Shown here one piece after another: positions 1,155-34,791 of a stretch of DNA of 39,056 nucleotides. How positions within the stretch are numbered: the first letter of the stretch is position 1; each line of letters starts with the position of its first letter. The notes beneath the pieces are model-generated. The model searched no databases, was not told the DNA's origin, and saw only the letters and a program-made list of their open reading frames with translations. A program made the position numbers and the translations under genes. Source of the DNA: Jimgerdemannia flammicorona (Eukaryota); assembly GCA_003990765.1 (NCBI GenBank), contig RBNJ01000153.1, positions 1 to 39,056 of the forward strand, given 5' to 3'.

Positions 1155-1490
1155 TCAGACTGGGAAGATCAACATCTGTGCCAGTTGGTCCTTCTTCTTG
1201 ATTGGGAATAGAATAGTAGGATTGTGATTCTTAGTGATGAGTAGTATTTCTCCAATGTAGTCTGAATCAATGACTCCTCCTTCAATCATAATTTCACTTC
1301 TTGCCAAACTGCTTCTTGTCTTAAGGATCCTGACATGATCCTTTGGGATGGTCATCTCTAGGCCAGTTGCAAGTAGAGTGGTTGTCTGGGGTTCAAGTAC
1401 AGTTTTCTCCACTGTGGCGATATCCATTCCAGCTGCATTTTCTGATTTGTATTCTGGCAGGATGGCATCAGGGTGAATCTTCTGAATTTT
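1155..1490 (-). pseudogene. dut: dUTPase domain relic
   Basis: Motifs AGMDI, TGL, RSSLA, GGVIDSDYIGEI, AQM match trimeric dUTPase motifs 1-4; motif 5 (RGxxGFGS) not seen. Confidence 0.88.
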
Positions 1491-1856
1491 GACCTTGATT
1501 TCTTCTTCATCATCACTGTCCTCCAGAAGGGCTGGTGGTTCATCATCTTCCTCCTCCTCCTTTTCCTCTTTGGCTTGTTCCTTGAGGGTCTTCTCTCTTC
1601 TTTAGTGGTAGATCTCCTTGATTTTGCCAGTGTACTGGTAGCACTCATTGACATGCTCCATACAGTACATTTGGATCCCATGTGGGCAGACTCCTTGTGG
1701 TACATATCCTCCTGGGATCTTCTTGCACCATTCTTCTTCACTCATCCATCTGACTTTCTTCTTCTTTTTCTGTGTGGTCACCATGTAAGCTTCTTCTTGC
1801 TTGCTCTCTTCTTCCTCCATGTCAGGTAAGACTTCTTTGTTGACATTGATGGGAAT

Positions 1857-2200
1857 TCATATCTTCTGTCTCCGGTAGGTGATTTGCATCTTCTGGACAT
1901 TGAGATCGATTACTGCCCTGGCTTTGTGAAGCCATTGATTGCCAATAAGGATGTCATAGTTGGTGGCATTGGTTACAATTACATCTACTGGGATAGTCGC
2001 TCCTCCAATCTTGATGGGGACTTCTCGGATCTTTCCCAGAGGGGTGGCTCTTGTGCTGTCTGCTGTGACAAAAACCAACTTGGTTGCTTCTTCAACTTCT
2101 CAGCCTAGGCAGTCTGCTGCTTTCTTGCTCTCCTGCTCCAGTATCTATGATGGCTTCAAAGACCCTATTTTCGATTTGACATGTTGCATAGGCAGAGGTT
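1857..2200 (-). pseudogene. Retroviral-type aspartic protease relic
   Basis: AIIDTGA active site (~2135-2151) and DILIGNQWL flap-region motif, in different frames. Confidence 0.85.
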
Positions 2201-2229
2201 TTGCGATTGTCTTCACTTTCTTCTCCTGA

Positions 2230-3549
2230 GTCCTCTTGAACATTATTGGCCTTGGTTATCTTCCATCCTTGCTCCTTGGTTGTTTCAGCAAGTCTGAACC
2301 TCATTTGTTGTCTGAATGTTGGGATATCTGTGAGCTGTCCAAAGGTTGTGTTGACCTTTTGTTGGCTAAGATCCTTGAAGATATCATACTTGAAAGTCTT
2401 GGTCTTGCGAAGTTTCTTTTCTTTTTCTCCTTCGCTAGCTGGGGTAGTTCCTCAGATAATATCTTGAACTGCTTGCTCCAGCTCCATATCTTGGTCCATC
2501 TCTTCGGCTTGGCTTTCAGTGGCTGTTTCCATCTGCTTTTCTACTGGGTTCTTCTTGGGTCTTCCTGGTGGTCTCTTGTATGGTTCCTTGTGAACATCCT
2601 TCTTGGTAGTCTGAGCAGGATAGACCTCCCATTCTTCTTCATCAGAATCTCCAATTTCCTCAAAGGTAATTGTATTGGCCTGCTCCTTGTTTCATGTAGC
2701 ATTGCTTGGTTGAGCCTTGCACTTGGTTTCACTCATGCATTCATAGGAGTAGTGGCCTTCTTCTCCACAGATATAGCAGGTACCTTTCTTCTTGTCTGAG
2801 GTGGCAGCAAACTTTTGAACTGGGCAGCAGTTTCTTCCTTGGATTTCTTTTACCACATCTCCCAGTTGGGCAATCATTTCGGCGAACCTCTTGGCAAGTT
2901 CCTCCATAGGGTCACTGTTATTTTGCTGCTCTGTAGTTTTTGGCTGAGGTGTGTTTCGATTGATCATTGTAGTAGTGATCATGCTGGTTGCCTTGGGTGT
3001 TTCAATTCTGACTCCTGTGACTCTTTCCATTGTATGGTCTTGTGGGTGTCTGGCTGTCCAATATCACTGAGTATAGGTGACCTTCTGTGGCAGATCCAGG
3101 ACTACTGGTGATGAATGGATGGCCATGGCTATCTCTGGGCGAACTCCTTTCATGAAGGTTGCTTTGGCTACTTGATCTCAGATAGCAGCAGCATAATCTA
3201 CAAGGATTATCTGATATCGAATTCTGGTATAGAATGTGTTTGGATCCTCACTCATTTCTTGGCATATTGTGTTGAGCTGATCCTTCAAGGCTTGCTTGAT
3301 CTCATCTGTATAATATGTATTTTGGAGCCAGGTCTTCTGTGCTGTTAGTATAGCATCAGCATCATTTCCTATATGGGTTGTGGCTGTGAATGCTGCTCTG
3401 GCAGAGCCTCGTACGCTGAAGGGCATGAGGGCTACTTGCTGTGCTGCTGTCAGGGTCCTTACAGTGGCATACTACTCGAAATCATCAATGAAGGTAATGA
3501 TTGATTCATCTGAGGTATACCCGTGGAATACTGGTGGTCTCATATCCAT
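2230..3549 (-). pseudogene. gag: gag relic with CCHC zinc knuckle
   Basis: MRPPVFHG..FIDDFE start, major-homology-like QEMSEDPNTFYTR, and CYICGEEGHYSYEC knuckle at 2737-2778; many stops. Confidence 0.8.
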
Positions 3550-6652: not shown

Positions 6653-8247
6653 TCTGATCTTCTATATATCAGATCTCCTATATATCAGATCTTCTTTATG
6701 CTAGCAATGTGGAAAAGAGTGAAAAGAATGCAATGATTATTTAGTGAGTTGATAATTGTCTATGTTCACAGCATCCTATTTTGAAGGATAGTGTCTACCT
6801 ATTATCTAATCTTGCTAGGTTGCTGGAAGTTATAGTTTTATAGAGAGGTTCACTCTGTTCTATCATCATTCTGAAAATTCAATAGATAAATCTTCAGCAA
6901 TATTAACTTCAAGGCATGCATATCAATCTTCTTAGATTAGATGCTTCATATTGGTCACTGCTTTCCTGTTTGAATTTCTTCAGATGATGGTATGCCATAG
7001 TCAGTAGTTTTTCTGACCAGTTTTTTGATATAGCATAGTAGGCAATAATTTTTAGTTAGTAACACTTTTAGGAGATTTGCAGTTGTCTAAATGAGTTCTT
7101 AAAGAAGTTGTTATGGGAGCTGTTGTTAGGTCCTCAAATTTCAAAGATCCTCATCATCAATAATATCACTATTACTAGTAAGGATAGAAGTTTTGCATAG
7201 AAAGTAATTATTATGCCCCTCTCATATTACAGATTTGAGATTAGGGTCTTTTTAGAAGACATCTGCAATTGCACTACCCTGCTATCTATCTCACTATTGG
7301 CTTATGATGATGATGCTCAATGACAATATACAAACAACATACTGCCAAAAGCCAAGAGCATCAAAAAGCTACCTTCTCAGGCTCTCTATGAATAAATTCC
7401 ATCAAATAAAAAAAAATAGCAAAGACCAGTATAAATTTTACTTGATTTTGCTTACTCTGAAAATCCCATTACTGATCTCTCTCAATGGAATGTGCATTAA
7501 GTTCTGATCTTTGGTCTTGAAATGATTAGAGAAACTATGTTTACTATGTTATTAAAGCTCTAGAGGCCACTATTATTCAGTTTTCCATTCATCTCTATCA
7601 GTACAATATTTTGCAACATTCATTTCAGTAGACATTTCTTCTGCATAAGGTATTCCTTTGGTGGTATTATTCAGACTTATATATATAGTATCATCTATAT
7701 AGTTGGTCTTAGTGATGCAAGTAATTTTGGTGAGATATAATTCTTCTCTAATATGGAAAATCTGTACACATTGGCATTCAGCCACATCTGCTCTAAATTC
7801 TAGACTTAAATAGAATAGCTTGGAGCTGCAAGAATTCTATCAAAATAAATAAGAGTGGTATTTGAATAGTTAAGTTGGGAATAGATAATAAATAGATATC
7901 ACTTTAGCTTGAATTACAGATGAGTTAATCTATAATTTTACATATAAAAACAATATAATATTATATAAATTACTTTTATTTGTTTAGTTTATATTTTATG
8001 TAAAGAAAAGATAATTATTTATAAATTTAATAAACCTAAGACACACCTGAAGGATAGCTATAGATGATAAGAGATTGGTGTAGATAATTTATAATTGTTA
8101 TAGCATCTGTAGACTATAGAATACAGACCTGGCCTCAGTTCAATATAGTGGAAACGCATGGTAAACCGACCCTTATGGTTGTAGTGTGGAAATGAAAGAC
8201 GACAGAACTAAAATCGCAAAAACGTGATGGTGACGACATGACAATTC

Positions 8248-8271
8248 TGTGACGTCACAATTTTTTTTTTT
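8248..8271. promoter_or_regulatory. Palindrome TGTGACGTCACA (CRE/ATF-type TGACGTCA) followed by a poly(T) tract; candidate promoter
   Basis: Perfect 12-bp palindrome 8248-8259 and T-run 8261-8271 near the start of the CpG-rich island. Confidence 0.4.
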
Positions 8272-8572
8272 GTTGACGGGTTCAAAACAATGATCCTGCA
8301 GCGGACGGCAGATTTCCCTGTTGGCGTCAGCGCCGGGTTACATGATTCCCATCTATTCCTGCAGTAGACGTAGATCTTCGGCACCCACGTCGAATACCCG
8401 TTTACTGCGTGGCTACGATGGCTAACATGAACGCCTTTCGTGTGGATCCCAATCAGCGGGCGTGAACGTTTTAGGGTGATTCGGCAGTTTGGCAGCTGGC
8501 CGTAGTTGCCTTGGTGTTCGTGGGGCGGTTGCCTTATGCCTAGCGCTACAGCTGCTAAATATCTCTGTACAG
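8272..8572 (+). ncRNA. Candidate structured ncRNA of unknown identity ending at an ATAAGT 5'SS-like site
   Basis: CpG-rich, no credible plus-strand ORF, several possible helices (GACGGGT/ACCCGTT; GCAGCT..GTAG/CTAC-AGCTGC); followed by AG|ATAAGT (8573-8578) and TACTAAC (8630-8636). Start is a guess. Confidence 0.35.
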
Positions 8573-8660
8573 ATAAGTATTTTATATTAACGTGGCGAAC
8601 CTTGTATAATCTTCGAAATCCGTAACACCTACTAACTTTACTTTTGACCTGTTCCTTATG

Positions 8661-8716
8661 CCGGTCTTGGTTGCTGTAAACCAACTGATGAGCCCCTTAA
8701 GCAAGGGCGAAACCGG
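8661..8716 (+). ncRNA. Type III hammerhead ribozyme
   Basis: CCGGUC^ UUGGUU-gcugua-AACCAA CUGAUGA GCCC-cuuaagcaa-GGGC GAA ACCGG. Core CUGAUGA at 8685-8691 and GAAA at 8709-8712, GUC triplet with predicted cleavage after 8666, stem I 6 bp, stem II at least 4 bp with G10.1-C11.1, stem III CCGGU/ACCGG. Confidence 0.92.
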
Positions 8717-8984
8717 TTCTATAGAAACACATCTGCACGCAACCCATCTTCCAATGTCCATTGTTGTGGCCACCCGCACAATACGTGCTATGATTAACTG
8801 AGCATGGTCCCGTAGCGAGAATGTGCCATGCGACGTCGACGCGTGTTTGAGGAGGTCACGAGGATGAGGTGGGATTAATAAGAGGTTCAAGGAGAGGCAG
8901 GGGGGACCTTATTTACTTCTCAATCCTTATCCGCATATCCATAATTCGTCTATAGAATCTTCAAGAACTCGTTAAAGCTCAAAG

Positions 8985-9077
8985 GTACGTTCCCCAACTC
9001 TCTGTTCCCTCCACTTAACTATTCCGATCCCACTATCTTAATATATTTATCAACGCCTTTCTTCTTCTAACTCGCAG
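8985..9077 (+). other. Canonical spliceosomal intron (93 nt) of an unidentified transcript
   Basis: AAG|GTACGT donor, pyrimidine-rich body, TTCTAAC branch, CAG acceptor; a further donor GTGAGT at 9127 and possible acceptor TGTCAG at ~9333. Confidence 0.65.
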
Positions 9078-9659
9078 CATCCAAACCGACGTGGATTGCC
9101 ACCGTCGACCAGGTTGTTCGCGTGACGTGAGTGCCTCGTGCGATGGGGATGTTGGGAAGGTGTATATTGTTGGCAGACAATCTCTGTGTTTTTGTAAGAT
9201 CTGTTTGCTTTTTATACTATTTAAGGTGTGATGGTGCGGAGCTCGCGACATACATTTCATTTCCTATTATTTATGTTTTTTAATTTCTGTTTCCAATCGG
9301 GCCTCCCTCATTCTTTCGCCCTGTTGTTTGTCAGAATATGAATCTAATTTCTACATAATTCGCCCGTTGATGCTGCCTATTACTGGCAAATACTCGCGTT
9401 GAGAATGTATGTAGTGTATGGTGCATAATTTCTTAGAACACATGCATACATATTTCATACATGGAACTTGATGAGCAGGCTCAAACCACGACACTGTGGT
9501 AGATCCTAATGGCGAAGAGCGGCACTTTATTGATAATGTATGTAACGAGCTTTTTCGTTTAGTGATATAGATACTGATGACATTAATACATAAGCCACAG
9601 TGGGTGATGCATGGCATAAAGGTTATAGAACCCTCAGAAGTGATCTCTCATGAAATATA

Positions 9660-21654: not shown

Positions 21655-24600
21655 AGAGATATATCTTGAGGCAGTTGATGTGTACTGGTGTCCTGAGGGT
21701 TCATCCATCTATGCTTCTTAAATAGATGCTAGTTCCTATGATGTTGTATACAAGATAGGGTCCTTTCCACTTGGGCTCCAGTTTGGTAGTAAAATTTGTT
21801 TCAATCATACTTCTTCCAACTAGTACTTGATCTCCAATTTTGATCTTCTGATCCTTCTGCTTCTGGTTATAGTACTTCTTTTGTCATTCTTGGGCTTTGA
21901 TAATTTAAACTCAGGTTTGATTACATAACTGTTCTGCCTTCTTAACAAGGACTCTGAGATTCTCATAGTCAGCAGTTCTGGTTTTCTTGACAAACAACAT
22001 TTTGAATGGCTTTTGTTTGGTGGAGGTAGCAGGAGTGTTCCAAATTTCCCATAGGATCACAGACAAGCATAGGTCCCAGTTGGTAGGATTGACTTGGGCA
22101 AGTCCTTTCTTGATGGTCTGATTCATTCTTTCTGTCATGTCATTGATCTGAGAGTGGTATGTTGTGGTCCATTTGAGGTGGATCTTGTAAATTCAGGTAT
22201 AACTTATAATTATATTTTTGATGAATTCTGTATCTCAGTCAGAGATAAGCTCTTCTGGGGGTCCATATCTGAGTGTGAGTACATGAAGAAGGTCTACAAT
22301 AGTTAAGACATATGCAATTTCCATTGGAAAAGCCTTGGGCCACTTTGTCAGATAATCTACAAATATAAAAATATACTTGTTTCTTCTTGATATAACTGGT
22401 AGAAGTCCAATTACATCTTCTCTCCATCTCTGAAAGACGTTGTCAGGTAGTATGATTGGTTGTAGTGGTGCTTGATAGTTCGTACTTCTAGCAGATATCA
22501 CATTTCTTAAGTATATCCTGGACTTGTATTCTAAGGAAGAGCTAATGTTGATATATTGTTTACAGCTTTTCTTCTATGTTTGCTTGTCCCTGGTGGGCTT
22601 TCTGATGTTCCTTTCAGATGAGATCTTCTTATGTCTTGATGGTCTGAGGAGCTTCCTTTAGGGTATAGTTCCTTAGAATACCTTTTGATTCATTAGGGTT
22701 AGCAAGAAAGTATATCAACATTGTTGTGAGCTTTCTCTGCTGTTTGGATGATGGTGATTTTATAATCCAGAAGGATAAGAATCCAGTCAGCTAGGATTCT
22801 GGTAGGTTCCTTATCATTCAATAGCCATTTAAGGGCTATATGGTCTATGAACAGGGTGAATCTTTTTCCAATAAGTTAATGCTTAAACAGGGTGACAGCC
22901 TATATAACTGTAAAGTATTCAAATTTGGTGCTACTATAATTCATCTGCTGCTGATCAGTAGCTCAGCTTGCATAAGCTATCAACTAGTATTGTTGGTCAG
23001 ATCCCTCTTGGGCTAGAACTGCTCTCAGGCCATTTTTGGAGTTATCTATATCCAAGATAAATGGCTTCTATAGATTTGGGTGGATAAGGATTAGTGCTGT
23101 AGTCATACTGTGCTTGAGTTCCTTGAAGGCTAGTTCTTGTAATTCTGTCCATTTGTAAGATACTCCTTTCTTGAGAAGGATTCGAATTGGGGCAGTGATT
23201 TGCACAGAGTCCTTGATAAACCTTCTATAGTAGGATACTAGCATCAGAAAGGATAGTATTTCCTTTGGGGTTTTGGGTACTGGCCAGTTGTTGATGTTCT
23301 CTGTTTTCTTTGGGTCTGCACGATTTCTTATTTCAAAACTATAAATCCAAGAAATTTAAGTTTCTGTTTTTCAAAGTAGCATTTCTTAGTATTGAGTCTC
23401 AGGTGGTTCTTGTGGGTGAGCTTGATGAATTCTTCTAGATGATGTAGGTATTCCTTGAAATTTGCTGAATAGATGTTTGAATCATCTATGTATACAATTA
23501 GACAGTAATGGATCAGGGAGGTATAGACTGAATTCATCATTCTCTGAAAGATTGGGGGTGTATTGCAAAGTCCAAAAGATATCTAGAGATATTCAAACAG
23601 TTTTCCTAGAGTAAGAAAGACTGTCTTTTGAATGTCTTTTGAGTCTATGGGAATCTTGTGGAATCCTGCAAAAAGGTTCATACTGTTGAAGTATCTGGCA
23701 TCTTGTAACTGAACCAAAAGGTCATCAATTGTGGGCAAGGGATAGGCATCCTTGTCAGTTACTGAATTGAGTTTTCTATAGTTAAAGCAGAGTCTCCTTC
23801 CTCCTTTCTTTGGTACAATAAGTATAGGGCTGGCCCAAGAACTAGTTGAGGGTCAGATGACTCCATTGTCTAAGAGTTCTTAAATGTGCTCCTTTTTGAA
23901 TATCTTTAGGTGATGGGGTATTCTATAGAGTGTCTGCCAGATGGGTATTGCATTTCTTATATTTATACTGTGGTGATATGATGGGTTATATGATAGGTTG
24001 CCATAGTCTATAATGAAGATATCTTGATATTTATTGAGGAGTTCTACTAGTTGTTACCATTGCTGGGGTGTCAATTCTTCTCCAATGTTGGTGGAAGGCT
24101 TCACTGTCTCCTGGATCACAGAGGGGCCTTTCCTTTCTGCTGGGACCTTTTGCCATTTCCTGATTGGTTTAGCTCATAGACTTCTCTGTTGGTTTAGTTG
24201 AGAAAGGGCACTAAATGTCCTATGATGGGTCCTTTTGACAGAATGATAGTTTCCCAACTTTGGTTGGTTCCTTGAGAGTGCACTAGATTTATCTTTTCAG
24301 GGAATGTGTGTCCTTCAATGTACAGATTCAGGATATCTTCATTAGGTTTGAAAAAGAGGTTTCTGGGATTGGGTGGTGCAAATATTTCGAAGGTGGTTTG
24401 CTATCCAGGCTCCAGGATGAGATTCTTGTGCAGTTTGACTAGTTGGTGGTATACTTGCTGGGGAATATGCCTCTTGAGGTGATTAATATGAAGGAGATAT
24501 ACTTTCTTCTTGTCTGAGCTTCCAAATTCTTTGGCCTGCCTTGTTCCTTCAATCAGTTCAGAGACTTCTTGTAATTGAGGAGTTTTGACTCTCATGAAGA

Positions 24601-24920
24601 CTGCTTGAGCAATCTTCTGTTCTCTCATGATTCAGTGCCATTCTGTACTACTATTGTATAGGATGACCTTGATTTTGCCTGTATATTCTGAGTCTATAGT
24701 TCCTCCTTCAATAGTTATTCCTCATCTGGTGAGTTCAGCTCTTGAGGTCAGTTGGATGTAAGTTCCTTAGAGTGACTGCATGGCTATTTTGGTTTAGATC
24801 ATCAGTGTTCTTCCAGACTTAATAGGTTTGTCCTCCAGATTGTGAAGGTCATACACTATATCCTCTTGGTGAGCTTTGGTCGGGGGTTTGGCTTTGGGAT
24901 GTAGCAGGGCATACTGGGCA
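21655..24920 (-). pseudogene. pol: Decayed pol (dUTPase 24515-24920, RT ~23100-24050, RNase H ~22710-23080, integrase ~21655-22500)
   Basis: IVYIDD, DYLTKWP, PEELISD, GMTERMNQTIK, KWKGPY, KIAQAVF..RQAKEFGS motifs; many stops. Confidence 0.9.
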
Positions 24921-25769
24921 ACATTCTTGCTAAATTCGGGCTGTCCTTGGGCTGAGGCTCTACTAGCAGGAAGTCTTTAGGCTCTGAGGTTGAGGTGCAG
25001 CCATTGGGCTCCAGTAGAAGGATCTCAGAAGTAATTGATTCCTCTTTTTCCTGTAGAGTCTAGGGCTTCCATGTATCTTCTATCCATTCTTGGCAGGTTG
25101 TATGTCTGATGAGAGCTAGGACATCTTCTCCCAAATTATAGATATTGAGGATCCTTCTTCCTGGCTTCTTGATGTGGCATATTTAGATCTGGCCTCTATT
25201 ATCTCCTCTCTTCAAGGTATAAATTGTGATATCCTGACTGAGATGAATCTTCTGGTGTCTGCAGTCTCAGCAATCTGGGTGTCTTCCATGGTTTTAATAT
25301 CCCATTGCTTGAAAATGCTGTTCCCAGTTATTGATCTCTTGTTGTCTTGGGAATTAGTATCCATCTTGATCATAAGTTGGGGGAAGGGTAGACAGGGGAT
25401 ATACCTCTATTCAGGTGAAGAGGCCTTGTTCTCTAGATCAGCTTTGCAACTTGGTAGTAACTTCTTAGAAGGTGGTTGACCATGTAACTGTGGTTGGAAG
25501 TTCTAGTCTTTGTACCAGAAATTGAATACTTTTGGAGAACACCCACACTATACAAATTGCTGCTACACCCAGAGAACTGTCCCAATAAGAAAATTGCCAG
25601 AATCACTCACAGATATTCAGTTTTGACTATTATACCACTAAATACCAACAAGGACCCAAGGAATCTTAGAACATTTTATTACTTTTAACAAAGTAACTGG
25701 GGGCTCAAGCCAAACTACATCAATTTCCAACCTTGTAATTTATCTCTATTGAGCCAGGCACATTACATT

Positions 25770-28190: not shown

Positions 28191-29459
28191 AAAAAAGAAG
28201 AAAAAGGTCATGACCTAGAAGAAATATGCCAGTAGTGAAGAATCTACCATAGAAGAGAAAGAAGAATCTGAAGATGGAAATTATCCCAGACTCAATCTCT
28301 GAATCAACCTAGTGGATGATAGGCCAGAAGACAATATATGGGTCAAGAATACTATTCCCATTACCATTGGAGCTATTGCAGGCGAAATCTAAGGATGCCC
28401 CACCTGCCTCAAGAGACACAAGTGCCCCAAGCACTCCTCCAAGATCATTGGGACAAAAAATTCACCTAGCATAGCCTGCTCTGAGTGCAGAAGGAAGAAG
28501 ACAAAATGCAAATATTTTCTAGAAATACCTGCAGCTGAAGCCACAGATGTCCAAGCAATCTGGAGACAAGAATCATCTGAGGAAGAAGAAGCTCTTGACC
28601 AAGAAGTTCCTGAACAAGAAGCACCTAAAGAAGAAGAGGTCTCTGAACTCATTCCCAGGGATGACCCTTATTGGACACCATCTGAAGATAATGACCCTTG
28701 GAATATAGAAGAAGGATCCAGCATAATCCCCATTATTCCCAAGAAAGAAACTTACCAAGTAAGGGCATTTTGGCTAGGGAGATGCCCACACCAAATGGTC
28801 TTCTACTCTCCCTGAGACTACTGTTATCAGTGCCATCTACTTGATCAGCAAGAAAGACAGAGACCCTAAAGACCAGAACCCCTAACTATAGTTGCACAGT
28901 CAACTACCTTCCAAGAAGTTATCACTAGGTTGCAAAGCCAATTTAGAGGACAAGGCCTTTTCACACAAACAGAAGTATACCCCTTATCCATGCTTTCTCC
29001 AACTTATGACTAAGATGAGTACTGATTCCAGAGACAACAAGAAATCAACAACTGGAAACATCATTTCTGAGCAATGGGATATTGTAATTATGAAAGACAC
29101 CAAGACTCCCGAGACTGCAGACATCAGAAGATTTACCTCTGTCATGATGTTGCAATCCACACCTTGAAGAGAGGAGATAACAGAGGCCAGATTCGAAAAA
29201 TCCAAACTGAGAAGCCAGAAAGAAGGACCCTCAAGATCTACAATTTAAGAGAAGACATCCTAGCTCTCATCAGATATATAACTCACCAAAAATGGGCAGA
29301 AGATGCCACCAAATTCATGGAAGCCCTAGAACCCACAGGAAGAAGAGGAATTAACTATCTCTGAGACTCCTCTACAGGAGCCAGATGGCCACACCTTAAG
29401 AGGCTCTCTGCCTGTAGAGCCACAGCTCAAGGACAGCCAGAAATCAGTAAGGATATTGC

Positions 29460-32400
29460 CCAGTATGCCCTGCTACATCCCAAGGCCAAACCTCTGACCA
29501 AAGTTCACCCAGAAGATGTAGGATATGATCTTCACAGTCTGGAGGATTAATCCATCAAACCTGGAAAAACATTCATGATCAGAACTGGACTAGTTATGCA
29601 GTCACCTCAAGGAACCTATATTCAACTAACCTCAAGATCTGGACTTGCCAGATAAGGAATAACCATAGAAGGAGGAACTATTGACCCAGGATATATAGGC
29701 GAAATTAAGGTCATTCTATATAACAGTAATACAGAATAGCACTGAATCATTAGAGGACAGAAGATTGCCCAAGCAGTCTTCATGAAGGTCAAGACCCTAT
29801 AACTACAAGAAGTCTCTGAACTGACAGAAGGAACAAGACAAGCCAAAGGATTCAGAAGTTTAGACAAGAAGGAAGTACATCTCCTTCAAGTCAACTACCT
29901 CAAGAGGAATATTCCCCAGCAAGTGTACTGCCAGCCAGTCAAACTGCACAAGAACCTCATCCTGGAACCTGGAGAGCAAACCACCTTCGAAATCTTTGCA
30001 CCACTCGACCCCAGAAATCTCTTCTTTGAACCCAATGAAGATATCCCACACCTGGATATAGAAGGACACACCTTCTCCAACAAGATGAACCCAGTACATT
30101 CTCGAGCAACCAACCAAGTTGGGAAACCATCATCTTGCCAAAAGGAACTATCATAGGACATCTGGTGCCTTTTCTTAACCAAACTCATAGAGAAGTTTAT
30201 GAACCAAACTTATTGGGAAATGGCAAAAGGTCCCAGAAGAAAGAAAAGGCCCCTCTGCAACCCAGAAGACTGTGAATCCTTCCACTAACATTGGAGAAGA
30301 ATTAACACCCCAACAATGGCAACAACTAGTAGAACTCCTCAACAAATATCAAGATATCTTCACTACTGATTATGGCAACCTACCATACAACCCATCATAT
30401 CACCACAGTATAAATATAGGAAATGCAACAGCTATTTGGCAGAAACCCTATAGAATACCCTATCACTTAAAGACATTTGAAAAGGAGTACATCTAAGAAC
30501 TCCTGGACAATGGAGTCATCTGACCCTCAACTAGCCCTTGGGCCAGTCCTATACTTATTGTACCAAAGAAAGGAGGATGGAGACTCTGCATTGATTACAG
30601 GAAACTCAATTCAGTCACCAAAAAGGATGTCTATCCCTTGCTCAGAATCAATGACCTTTTGGATCAGTTATAAGATACCAGATACTTCAGCAGTATGGAC
30701 CTTTCCACAGGATTCTATGAGATCTCCATAGACCCTAAAGACATTCAAAAGACAGTCTTTCTTATTCTAGGAAAACTGTTTAAATACCTCTAAATGCCCT
30801 TTGGACTTTGCAATGTACCCCCCCACCTTTCAGAGGATGATGAATTCAGTCTCTGCCCCCTTGATTCACCACTGCCTGATTGTATACTTAGATGATTCCA
30901 ATATTTATTCAGCAAATTTTGAAGAACACCTGCAATATCTAGAAGAATTCTTTAAGCTCACCCATAAGAACCACCTGAGACTCAATGCAAAGAAATGCTA
31001 CTTCAGGAAACAGAAACTTGAATTCCTTAGATTCATAGTTTTGAAAGAAGAAATCCATTCAGACTCAAAGAAAACTAAGAAGATCAACAATTGGCCAGCA
31101 CCCAAGACCTTGAAGGAAACACTATTATTCCTGATACTAGTATTCTACTATAGAAGGTTTATTAAGGACTTCACCCAAATAGCTGCCCCAATCTGAGCCC
31201 TTCTCAAGAAAGGGGTACCTTATAAATGGACAAAATCATAAGAGAAAGTCTTCAAAGAACTCAAGAACCACATGACTACAGTACCAATCCTTGTGTGCCC
31301 CAATCTACAGAAGCTATTCATCTTATATATAGATGCTTTCAACATTGGCCTAGGAGTAGTTCTAGTCCAAGAAGGATCTGACCAACAATACTATATGATA
31401 GCTTATATAAGCCAAGCTACCAATTAGCAGCAGATGAACTATGGTAGCACTACACTGGAATGTCTTGCAGTTATATGGGCAGTCACTCTGTTCAAGCATT
31501 ACCTCATCAGAAAAAGATTCACCCTGATTACAGATCATATAGCCCTCAAATAGCTATTCAACTGTAAGAAATCCACTAGAATTCTAGACTGCTAGATCCT
31601 TATCCTTCAGGATTACAAAATCACCATCATCTACAAAGCAGAGAAAGCTTACAACAATGTTGACGTACTTTCCCATCAGCCCCAATGAACCAGAAGAAGG
31701 GTGTCCCAAGGAACTATACCCTAAAGGAAGCTCCTCAGACTATCAAGGCACAAGAAGATCTCATCCAAAAAGAATACCAGAAAGCCCACCAAGGACAAGC
31801 AAACATAGAAGAAAAGTTGTAAACAACACACCAACATTGGCCCAATCTCAGAACACAAGTCTGGGACATACATACTTAAGAAAAGTAACACCTGCCAGAA
31901 GGACCAAGGAAGGAAGAACTACCAAGTACCACTGCAACCAATCATACTACCAGACAATATCTTTCAGAGATAGAGAGTAGATGTAATCAGACCTCTACCA
32001 GTTAGACCAAGAAGAAACAAATATATCCTTATATTTGTGGAACATCTAACCAAGTGGCCCAAGGCTTTCCCAATAGAAATTGCAGATACCTTGATCATTG
32101 TAGGTCTTCTCCATAGACTCACACTCAGATATGGACCCACAGAAGAACTTATTTCTGACTAAGGCACAGAAATCATCAATAATATAATTATAAGTTATGC
32201 CTGAATTTACAAGATCTACCTCAAACAAACTACATCATACCAATGGTATGACAGAAAGAATGAACCAGACCATCAAGAAAGAACTTGCCCAAGTTAATCC
32301 TACCAATTGGGACCTTTGCTTACCTGAGATCCTATGGGAAATTCAGAACACCCCTGCTACCTCTACCAAACAAAAGCCATTCAAAATGATGTTTACCAAG

Positions 32401-32740
32401 AGAACCAGAACTGCTGACCACGAGAATCTTGGAGACCTCCTCAAGAAGGCAGAATAGTTACTTAATCAAGCCTGAGCTCAGATTATCAAAGCCCAAGAAA
32501 GACAAAAGAAGTACTATGACCAGAAACAGAAGGATCAGAAGATCAAGATTGGAGATCAAGTACTAGTTTGAAGAAGCATAATTGAAACAAATTATGCTGC
32601 CAAACTGGAGCCTAAATGGGAAGGATCTTATCTTGTATACAACATCAGAGAAACTAGTATCTATTTAAGAAGTATGGATGGATGGACCCTCAGGACACCA
32701 GTACACATCAACTACCTCAATATATGCTCTCCTATTATAA
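29460..32740 (+). pseudogene. pol: Decayed pol (dUTPase 29460-29860, RT ~30290-31200, RNase H ~31310-31670, integrase ~31750-32740)
   Basis: [43 protein letters not shown] (30885-30896); IDA..GLG, ITDH; TKWP, NGMTERMNQTIK, KWEGSY. Confidence 0.92.
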
Positions 32741-33281
32741 ACTAAACAATTAACTAGTACCTCTAGACCCTTGTTCTGAGTTCATTCCAATCACTTCCTT
32801 CCACAATTCCAACAAGCCAACAGAAACTCCCTTCAGCAAATCCAGACCCATCTAGAGAACCTCACCTTGGCCAGATATTTACTACAAGTCCACCAGCTAC
32901 AGGCTTACTATACAATTGGAGAATGGTTGCAGAACCTCCCAGCAGCAGACCTAACCTACATCAGAAGCTCCACTGGCCTTACTCAGAAAAATATCACTGC
33001 TGTAGATAGATTGTATACAATTTACAAATAGAATATCCCAGCATTAATGCAAGTACAATTCCTTCTAAATGACATCCAAAACATGAATCCTACCATCTAA
33101 TGGAGCATCATCAACCATAATAAAATTCTGTTTCCAGAGAAAGAAAAAGAACCTGTTGGATGGAGTGACTCTGATCCAAACAAAGATACTGGTTCAGGTA
33201 TTAATGCTGAAGATACTTATGCACATTGGAATGATGACTAAAGAATTGTCTGAGGACAAACCATTCTTTAGTGGGGGCTGA

Positions 33282-34791
33282 TGTGACAAGCAACAGAATT
33301 GTACCACTGAAATCATAAATTAGCCATATACTATATTTAGTACACTAAGCAATCAAGACTGCTTTACTGTGATAACCTGTATATTTAGCCAGAGATACCA
33401 GAAACAGTATGTTTATCTGTACCCTCCAGGTATACTGTACCCTCAAGATACACTGTACCCTCTAGGTAGACTGTACCCTCAAGGAACACTTGCCATAGTT
33501 AGCAATCTATAGTTTGCAATATTGTAATCAGTAGTAACTACAATTGTATAAAATACTCCAGAGACAAGAGTGAATAAACCTCAGTCTGAAATTCAGAATA
33601 CATTTCAACTTCAGTTCACTTTCCAATACAAAGAAGAGTCCAAAATTCAAAGCAAAAGATAAGTTTGCCTACAACACTTCAAGAGGAACTCTACAGCCAC
33701 TACTAGGAGATTGTAAGCTTTGCCATTTCCACTCTAGTCTATTTTCTGATACAAAAGATTGGTATACTTGCCAGGCTAAGCCAGAAGAGAAGAGTCCAAA
33801 ATACAAATACCAAAGAAGTCTCTAAATATTGAGTATTGGTCTCCTTTCCACTCTGGTCCACTTTCCAATATAAAGTCTTGGTTTGATTTCCAGATAAGCC
33901 TGAAGTTTTGCTGCCAAGTTCAAGGAAGAACTTCACTGCCTTTGAAGAGAAATCTACTGCTTAAGAAATAAGCCACTATTTCTAAGTTATCCACATTCCC
34001 AGAGAGCCTACTTTAAGAAACCTTGCCACAAGCCAGTCTATCTGATGCAACTTTGTAGTAGAGCTAGTCTAATAATGTAACTTTATGTAAATATAGCCAG
34101 TCTTTGACAAACTTACTAAGAATCTGCATTATCCAAGGTATCAGAGCTATCAATACCATATGAGTTATTAGTTTGTTCCCAGTGAGCCTGATTCAGAGAA
34201 TCTACCAGTAGTATTATTCCCAGTAAGCTGCCAATTCAGGAAGAATCTACACCATCCTCTATTCCCAGTGAGCCCAGTATAGAAGAATCTGCAACATTTA
34301 AGAAATCCACTAATTTAGGAGAATCTGCACCAAATCAAGTTATCTGCCAAATCCATATAAAGAATATCACTAAGATCATCCTGCATAAGGAACTACTGCT
34401 CTATACAGAAATCATTGTGCTATACAGAGATTATCATACAGAGATCACATAAGAAAACCACCAAATTGCCAGACCATCACACATAAAGAACCCACCACAC
34501 TATATAGAGATTGTCATACTATACAAGAGATTGTCATATCAGAAATCACATAATTTTGGAGAATGCCTATACCACACAAATCGCTGCTACACCCAGAGAA
34601 CTATCCCAATAAGGAAATTGCCAGGATTGCTCACAGATATCCAGTTTTAACTATTATACCACTAAACACCAACAAGGACCCAAGAAATCTTAGAACATTT
34701 TGTTGCTTTTAACAAAGTAACTGCAGGCTCAAGTCAAACTGCATCAATCTCCAACCTTATAATTTGTCTCTATTGAGCCAGGTACATTATA
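33282..34791 (+). repeat. 3' LTR (~1.5 kb)
   Basis: TGTGACA start after the PPT; ends CATTATA (decayed CATTACA); last ~260 bp match 25512-25767; TATAAAA at ~33547 and AATAAA at ~33573. Confidence 0.9.

Follow-up and report, generated by a model that had tools for sequence, protein, structure and literature searches.

Fungal telomerase RNA is among the closest described systems for the element reported here. According to excerpts of PMC4299874, an A at +1 of the 5′ splice site halts splicing after step one in Aspergillus telomerase RNA, and AUAAGU and GUCAGU are the two 5′-site variants for which a block of step two has been shown in the telomerase RNAs of fungi. Both variants occur in the present family, AUAAGU as in Aspergillus and GUCAGU as in S. 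cryophilus and S. octosporus, and in both systems a non-coding RNA is followed by a non-canonical 5′ site and a strong branch site (PMC4299874). In contrast to telomerase RNA, which is one gene, the family has at least 141 copies, and a hammerhead ribozyme and a masking hairpin follow its branch point. The family also differs in having U and C at +1, in lacking an Sm-like site and in carrying upstream RNAs that are specific to subfamilies.

Several ribozyme and intron systems offer further comparisons. Plant LTR retrozymes, as presented in passages of PMC4918200, resemble the family in their type III hammerhead with a loop-loop contact and in being many-copy, non-coding and heterogeneous, with isolated copies common. 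The family differs from them in that neither paired LTRs nor a target duplication were found, in the splice signals ahead of the ribozyme and in its fungus-like host. Its letters almost equal a tandem type I motif of the kind found in non-LTR retrozymes and Penelope-like pLTR hammerheads, here on metagenome contig L233 (compared with excerpts of PMC4209133 and bioRxiv 10.64898/2026.07.22.740005), and the Penelope intron of Drosophila virilis abuts its hammerhead (PMC4209133). Unlike these elements, the family has type III topology, is non-tandem and has no RT or GIY-YIG ORF beside its copies; the fungal Penelope-like hammerheads treated in the preprint excerpts are type I (bioRxiv 10.64898/2026.07.22.740005). 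U2-type AT-AC introns, as outlined in part of PMC5029451, share a /ATAAGT donor and a candidate AC past the branch point with the family, whose homologous copies, unlike those introns, also have T or C at donor +1 and are followed by a ribozyme. Self-cleaving RNAs are found within amniote introns as well (PMC7761336, in part), and their likeness to the family is that of a self-cleaving RNA in an intron-like frame. The HH9 and HH10 hammerheads and the CPEB3 ribozyme are few-copy, sit inside long canonical introns of protein-coding genes and are not known to lie within 10–30 nt of a branch point. In the titles and abstract openings that searches of open-licence PMC articles and bioRxiv preprints brought up, no hammerhead directly behind a branch point, or in Mucoromycota, is described; subscription papers and supplements, for example genome-wide hammerhead tables, could list copies.

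The hammerhead lies at 8661–8716 on the forward strand of the window, the whole 39,056-nt stretch of DNA that was analysed, and from its letters and their covariation it is a genuine type III motif. Helix III (8661–8665/8712–8716) forms the open end. It is followed by a GUC cleavage triplet, with the predicted cut after C8666 (between 8666 and 8667), by helix I (8667–8672/8679–8684), by the core CUGAUGA (8685–8691), and by helix II (8692–8695/8705–8708) with GAAA behind it. The CUGANGA and GAAA core, the NUH triplet and the three helices that define Rfam family RF00008 are all present, in agreement with the sequence-only reading, which had described the catalytic core and helices as intact. 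Across 25 aligned copies, 94.4% of the cells in the stems are paired and two-sided changes occur in 5 of 17 pairs, a level reached by 0 of 500 shuffles; the covariation of helix II is partly fixed by the search pattern and related sequences can beat shuffles. The kissing contact between loops I and II, the tertiary contact of RF00008, is paired in 99% of 97 cells with 15 two-sided changes, and joins 8673–8675 with 8700–8702 in the window copy. An Rfam search had been proposed as a check. RF00008 does match the window copy, but weakly (24.1 bits, E = 0.034) and under the gathering score of 48.5, so that the window hammerhead has no gathering-level Rfam match. All 37 RF00008 matches in the G000 assembly also fall under the gathering score, the best copy reaching 47.4.

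A search of G000 with the exact core pattern gave 141 matches and its reversed control gave 0; divergent hammerhead copies add to this number. From loci L001–L110, 102 distinct sites were parsed, with 44 more from other searches, and 41 of the 141 core matches were taken in only where another search listed them. The ribozyme had been called lone, and it is so within the 39,056-nt window, where no second copy was found, but not in G000 with its 141 or more copies. By the copy-number check named beforehand, the proposal of a single domesticated ribozyme was rejected. The other proposal, a very recent insertion, is unlikely and was set aside as well since a duplicate at locus L002 shares both the unit and its left flank. 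Between the window and L002, the left flank is 83–88% identical and the unit 93–98%, from which it follows that the unit was already present when the duplication took place and has since been spared the decay seen in its flank. Elsewhere, copies that are 93–97% identical stand in unrelated flanks and thus the unit has moved. Selection on the ribozyme structure and on the splice-like signals next to it is also seen across the family, in keeping with a processing role for which the family as a whole was co-opted.

The retention of CpG, which had been noted for the ribozyme, in fact extends to the whole unit of about 1.5 kb. The CpG-retaining island at 8100–9600 lies within CpG-depleted retroelement debris, and its extent is also reflected in the identity with L002. 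The observed/expected CpG ratio is 1.07 at 8200–9500 compared to 0.11 over the remainder of the window. CpG is also retained, though less markedly (ratio 0.4–0.8), in an LTR-like repeat at 36000–37500, where no ribozyme was found. The window also holds two related, decayed LTR-retroelement copies at 20785–25511 and 28868–33593, which are inverted relative to each other, 78–88% alike and contain RT fragments, and, on the reverse strand at 1155–3063, retroelement fragments in which a zinc knuckle, an aspartyl protease and a dUTPase domain lie side by side.

In contigs outside G000, a loose search pattern produced 122 matches in viral contigs, and a tighter one produced 0 in viral and 0 in prokaryote contigs. 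Some units in the family occur as inverted pairs. Those of L051 and L079 stand back to back less than 1 kb apart, and L236 has an inverted copy of 1.4 kb at 93% identity. Immediate 68–78-nt duplications of most of the ribozyme are seen at L238 (139–293) and L239 (1450–1576), and the second copy has no cleavage triplet.

The retroelement origin of the family was considered from several sides. No hammerhead-bearing direct repeats 600–1000 nt apart, the arrangement of a plant-type LTR retrozyme, were found at the 102 sites, with the reservation that G000 consists of 35,354 contigs in which tandem or paired forms may be collapsed. A repeat of any kind spans the ribozyme at 10 of the 102 sites, and ribozyme pairs on the same strand are approximately 70–80 nt, 2 kb or 4.3 kb apart. 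Unit ends are ragged across the compared copies. Nothing convincing was seen in a search of 11 copies for target duplications, in which repeats of at least 7 nt were sought so that 4-bp ones were not callable. A fixed terminus of the Helitron, TIR or LTR type was sought and not found, and no internal region of the kind that would carry a PBS and PPT could be delimited. A few local duplications aside, the upstream flank does not resemble the downstream one in the way expected of a permuted circle. The RT or GIY-YIG domain of a non-LTR retrozyme or Penelope-like element was absent from the 139 + 112 flank ORFs scanned, which were drawn from 796 of at least 90 aa in flanks up to 2.5 kb; flanking ORFs are mostly unrelated host genes or fragments. 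The earlier statement that no LTR pair or reverse transcriptase flanks the ribozyme is therefore borne out beside the copies. As for the tandem or pLTR form, one exact type I hammerhead pattern had 0 matches in G000.

The type I form was found only in L233, a metagenome contig that as a whole is a 530-nt tandem repeat with nearly the same ribozyme letters in type I order. L233 is probably a non-LTR retrozyme; Plant_SRP matches in it are weak and far under the gathering score. The ribozyme of the family probably goes back to a type I hammerhead of the retrozyme or Penelope kind that would have been circularly permuted to type III. Since the intron of D. virilis Penelope ends at its hammerhead (PMC4209133, in part), an intron-plus-ribozyme module has a precedent in Penelope-like elements. 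The same facts could be read more simply, with the copies as solo LTRs or as what is left of a retrozyme or Penelope-like element and the splice-like motifs as relics with no present role. The high copy number, the near-identical copies in unrelated flanks, the close kinship with L233, and the Penelope intron argue for this, as does the frequent identity of isolated plant type III hammerheads with solo LTRs in the available text of PMC4918200. However, there is no hammerhead-bearing LTR pair, no convincing target duplication and no RT or GIY-YIG domain in the 251 flanking ORFs, the ends are ragged and the type I pattern is absent from G000. Relics would also not avoid G at +1 of the 5′ site in several different ways, as described below. 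This explanation is considered unlikely.

The unit has the order of a cassette: a promoter-like block, a structured RNA of about 300 nt, a 5′ splice-site look-alike, a branch point, a hairpin and the ribozyme. The 5′ block (8225–8271, forward strand) was delimited by a subfamily alignment and by pairwise 5′ boundaries. It contains a GTGACG repeat, TGACGTCAC at 8250–8258, which we take to be CRE/ATF-like, and a T11 tract at 8261–8271. The family homology of the window copy begins near this block; the 5′ boundaries of several near-identical pairs are at approximately −385 to −430 from the core; and family-wide the homology usually starts 385–470 nt ahead of the core, in a block that combines a homopolymer tract with TGACGTCA-like motifs. 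From this position and composition, the block may act as a promoter.

The putative structured non-coding RNA (8279–8572, forward strand, about 300 nt with an inferred start site) has a long-range helix that pairs approximately 8316–8326 with 8447–8460. Two-sided changes are seen in 5 of 19 predicted pairs among nine copies of the window subfamily, and in 6 of 17 pairs for one other subfamily. Upstream RNAs range from about 100 to 330 nt and differ in sequence between subfamilies. Folding of single sequences is better than that of shuffles in some representatives only; this and the differences between subfamilies count against the model set out below. The upstream RNAs match no Rfam family, and no ORF common to the subfamilies was found. 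In viral contigs, one upstream-RNA motif had 0 matches and another had five. L315 (1265–2361) has two upstream-RNA units in tandem, 526 nt apart, the first with an A+1 donor and a branch-like motif but without the ribozyme, the second with a C+1 donor and the ribozyme. In the subfamily of L043 and L039, the upstream RNA (200–460 nt ahead of the core) contains several occurrences of an AGUA/GGAA-type motif, which has no Rfam match and presumably resembles loop-E and large-subunit rRNA elements.

Behind the ribozyme, comparison of copies outlines a variable non-coding 3′ tail (8725–9494, forward strand) that is common to the closest copies only. Tails vary between copies and some hold host-gene fragments. 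In the window, the tail contains a canonical-looking short intron at 8985–9077 (forward strand; GT donor, CTAAC branch motif, CAG acceptor), which is partly kept in the closest copies and hints that the tail is or was a spliced transcript. One subfamily (L030, L038, L069, L074, L084, L103) has a decayed Cys/Gly-rich frame roughly 800–1400 nt downstream of the core that looks like captured gene cargo. Shortly behind the ribozyme are found a Crinkler N-terminal-like fragment in L018 (1215–1652, reverse strand), an RNase PH domain in L008 (2102–2533, forward strand) and a SPRY domain in L099 (2004–3062, forward strand).

Between the upstream RNA and the ribozyme are two signals of the kind used in splicing. 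The first, a 5′ splice-site look-alike at 8570–8580 (forward strand), reads CAG/ATAAGTAT with A at intron +1 (8573). It fits what we take to be the U1-complementary donor consensus at all 10 positions other than +1. The second is a perfect TACTAAC branch point at 8630–8636 (forward strand), whose branch A at 8635 is 63 nt after the 5′ site. Scoring of the donor ignored +1 and left out sites with under 170 nt upstream (10 of 102), giving a set of 92. A donor-like site of at least 8/10 is present in 63 of the 92 copies, where 4.3 are expected from shuffles, 4 are found antisense and 1 downstream; the copies are related, which makes the counts non-independent, and the scoring windows were fixed only once the data had been viewed. 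Of these 63 sites, 62 have a base other than G at +1, namely A (50), T (10) or C (2); the remaining one has G. The branch motif is matched at 6/7 or better in 62 of the 92 copies (15.7 expected), and donor and branch occur together in 46. Donor and branch are separated by a median of 63 nt, and branch and cut by a median of 31 nt (n = 44).

There is no AG between the branch point and the cut in the window copy. The first AG past the branch point belongs to a TAG at 8722–8724 (forward strand), which could serve as a 3′ splice site and would be lost through the ribozyme cut. The ribozyme is followed by a YAG at a distance of up to about 20 nt in 61 of 111 copies of the main ribozyme clade (clade I) and in 1 of 21 of a second clade (clade II), so that this feature is not general.

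The donor could instead be taken for a DNA site. AGATAAG contains what we take to be the GATA consensus, and the branch motif would then be due to chance. The T and C variants at +1 destroy GATA yet keep U1 complementarity, and the site keeps to the ribozyme strand (63 sense compared to 4 antisense) at an intron-like distance from the branch motif. A GATA-factor site was rejected as a very improbable reading, being largely refuted by the +1 variants.

A hold-out set of 43 sites was picked by ribozyme features alone and not by splice signals, leaving out 10 of 53 loci without a parsed ribozyme and one site that was too short. The donor threshold is passed by 13 of the 43 (1.2 expected), with A at +1 in 7, T in 3 and G in 3. 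Against the model, 30 of the 43 miss the threshold and G stands at +1 in 3 of the 13 that pass. About 20 of the 43 belong to clade II, which has different stems. A canonical GT[GA][AC]GT donor is present in 17 of these 20 and a CTAAC branch motif lies 9–10 nt before the cut in 14 of 20; homology between clade II subfamilies begins at the 5′ site. In one family with a common upstream RNA, the aligned donor is non-canonical in 15 of 18 rows and never canonical. The 15 donors are GTCAGT (4), CTAAGT (5), TTGAGT (3), TTGGGT (1), TTAAGT (1) and ATAAGT (1).

Genome-wide, the combination AGATAAGT..TACTAAC occurs 63 times compared to 23 for its control, and the ribozyme is directly behind it in 23 of 30 among the matches listed; the canonical GT version occurs 7 times (control 3). 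Other observations count against the model. The U1-like site is missing in 29 of the 92 copies and a good branch point in 30 of 92, a subfamily of 11 copies has the 5′ site but a good branch point within the scored window in only one, and in 15 of 59 copies an AG intervenes between branch point and cut. Judged by what characterises telomerase RNA, the family has a strong branch site at an intron-like distance and a 5′ site that, from its letters, would block step two, but it lacks an Sm-like site before the 5′ site (5 of 63 copies, where 3.3 are expected) that could protect the new 3′ end, which also counts against the model.

The A at +1 leaves room for complete splicing. In a U2-type AT-AC intron, the ATAAGT site would be joined to the AC of a GAC located 12–14 nt past the branch point, which would remove part of the strand that competes with the ribozyme and license the ribozyme to form the 3′ end. 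According to part of PMC5029451, a strong /ATAAGT consensus marks U2-type AT-AC introns, and yeast is able to splice AT-AC introns. A /ATAAGT donor with an AC after the branch point is present in the window and in most A+1 copies. A U-run followed by GAC is found in most A+1 copies, 12–14 nt after the branch A in 33 of 37, and splicing at GAC in silico raises the copies with catalytic folding above 0.5 from 2 to 15 of 37. However, the combination is absent in other copies, and those with T+1, C+1 or GTCAGT, as well as clade II, are not covered. Some A+1 copies have GGC, some T+1 copies have GAC, and the hairpin described below also explains GAC. A G at −3 makes for a poor acceptor. Full AT-AC splicing is regarded as a rather improbable account of the family.

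The stretch between branch point and ribozyme contains a strand that competes with the ribozyme fold. In the window this competitor, recognised from sequestration counts and folding, is at 8646–8652 (forward strand) and pairs with the 5′ arm of helix III and the cleavage triplet. It includes the AC (8647–8648) required by the AT-AC account, and one mismatch weakens its hairpin. A competitor strand is kept at this position with different sequences in each subfamily. The 5′ arm of helix III is sequestered in 89 of 111 clade I copies compared to 47 expected, and in 7 of 21 clade II copies compared to 4. Against the model, palindromic CCGG also favours the hairpin (the 47 of 111 expected by shuffle), and the hairpin is weakened in the window copy. 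The probability of the catalytic helix III exceeds 0.5 in 6 of 88 copies when the upstream 45 nt are included and in 60 of 88 when they are not. For the window copy, predicted to be partly active, the values are 0.59 with the upstream stretch and 0.99 without. When the bases from the branch point to +18 are held unpaired, as a bound spliceosome might do, the number of copies above 0.5 rises from 2 to 24 of 37. Folding thus predicts that the hairpin past the branch point keeps the ribozyme off until this stretch is opened.

Opening of the stretch suffices to free the ribozyme in silico, and this would also serve a docking or gating device in which U1 and U2 bind but never cut, with the ribozyme alone making the RNA end. 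Ribozyme activation, nuclear retention or suppression of polyadenylation are roles that such a device might have. Excerpts of PMC4299874 add to its plausibility: a G1A change blocked the first step in two S. pombe intron contexts, and U or C at +1 is absent from the natural cleavage signals given there. Set against this, the spacing equals that of a real intron (median 63 nt), and both AUAAGU and GUCAGU, known from the same excerpts to permit step one, occur in the family. Binding without cleavage is given only a small chance.

The preferred reading, held with about even confidence from these sequence comparisons, is that the unit is a retrozyme-derived, splicing-gated cassette for 3′-end formation on a dispersed family of non-coding RNAs. 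The order of its parts suggests that the splicing machinery may turn the ribozyme on and trim the end of a small non-coding RNA. The unit would be transcribed by RNA polymerase II, and the hairpin would fold first and hold the ribozyme off. A spliceosome would then assemble on the 5′ site and branch point and open the stretch 3′ of the branch point. The freed ribozyme would fold and cut about 30 nt downstream, taking away any 3′ splice site. As a non-G at +1 would also block step two, the spliceosome would perform only the first cut, and this cut would set free the roughly 300-nt upstream RNA and give it a defined 3′ end, in the manner of fungal telomerase RNA. In clade II, where the 5′ site is canonical, the ribozyme alone would block step two by cutting 9–10 nt past the branch point.

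In its full form the proposal is more tentative, and is given less than an even chance: spliceosome assembly would melt a conserved hairpin and activate the hammerhead just behind the branch point, and a large family of structured non-coding RNAs would owe its mature 3′ ends to the two cuts together. Telomerase RNA would then not be the only natural substrate of spliceosomal cleavage, and the family would have come to it along several independent routes (A, U or C at +1, C at +3, or the ribozyme cut). The effects of +1A and +3C are context dependent and can amount to simple inhibition of splicing in excerpts of PMC4299874, which counts against the model.

The discussion of PMC4299874, as excerpted, raises the question of whether spliceosomal cleavage stands alone or is the first example of a wider class. 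With more than 100 natural variants in one genome, the family makes this question directly testable. Controls are built in, namely the different +1 bases, the clade with canonical donors, and copies with weak and strong hairpins. The proposed mechanism would give dispersed, unpaired hammerheads a role that needs neither circles nor LTR pairs, and it suggests a compact RNA switch that is controlled by splicing.
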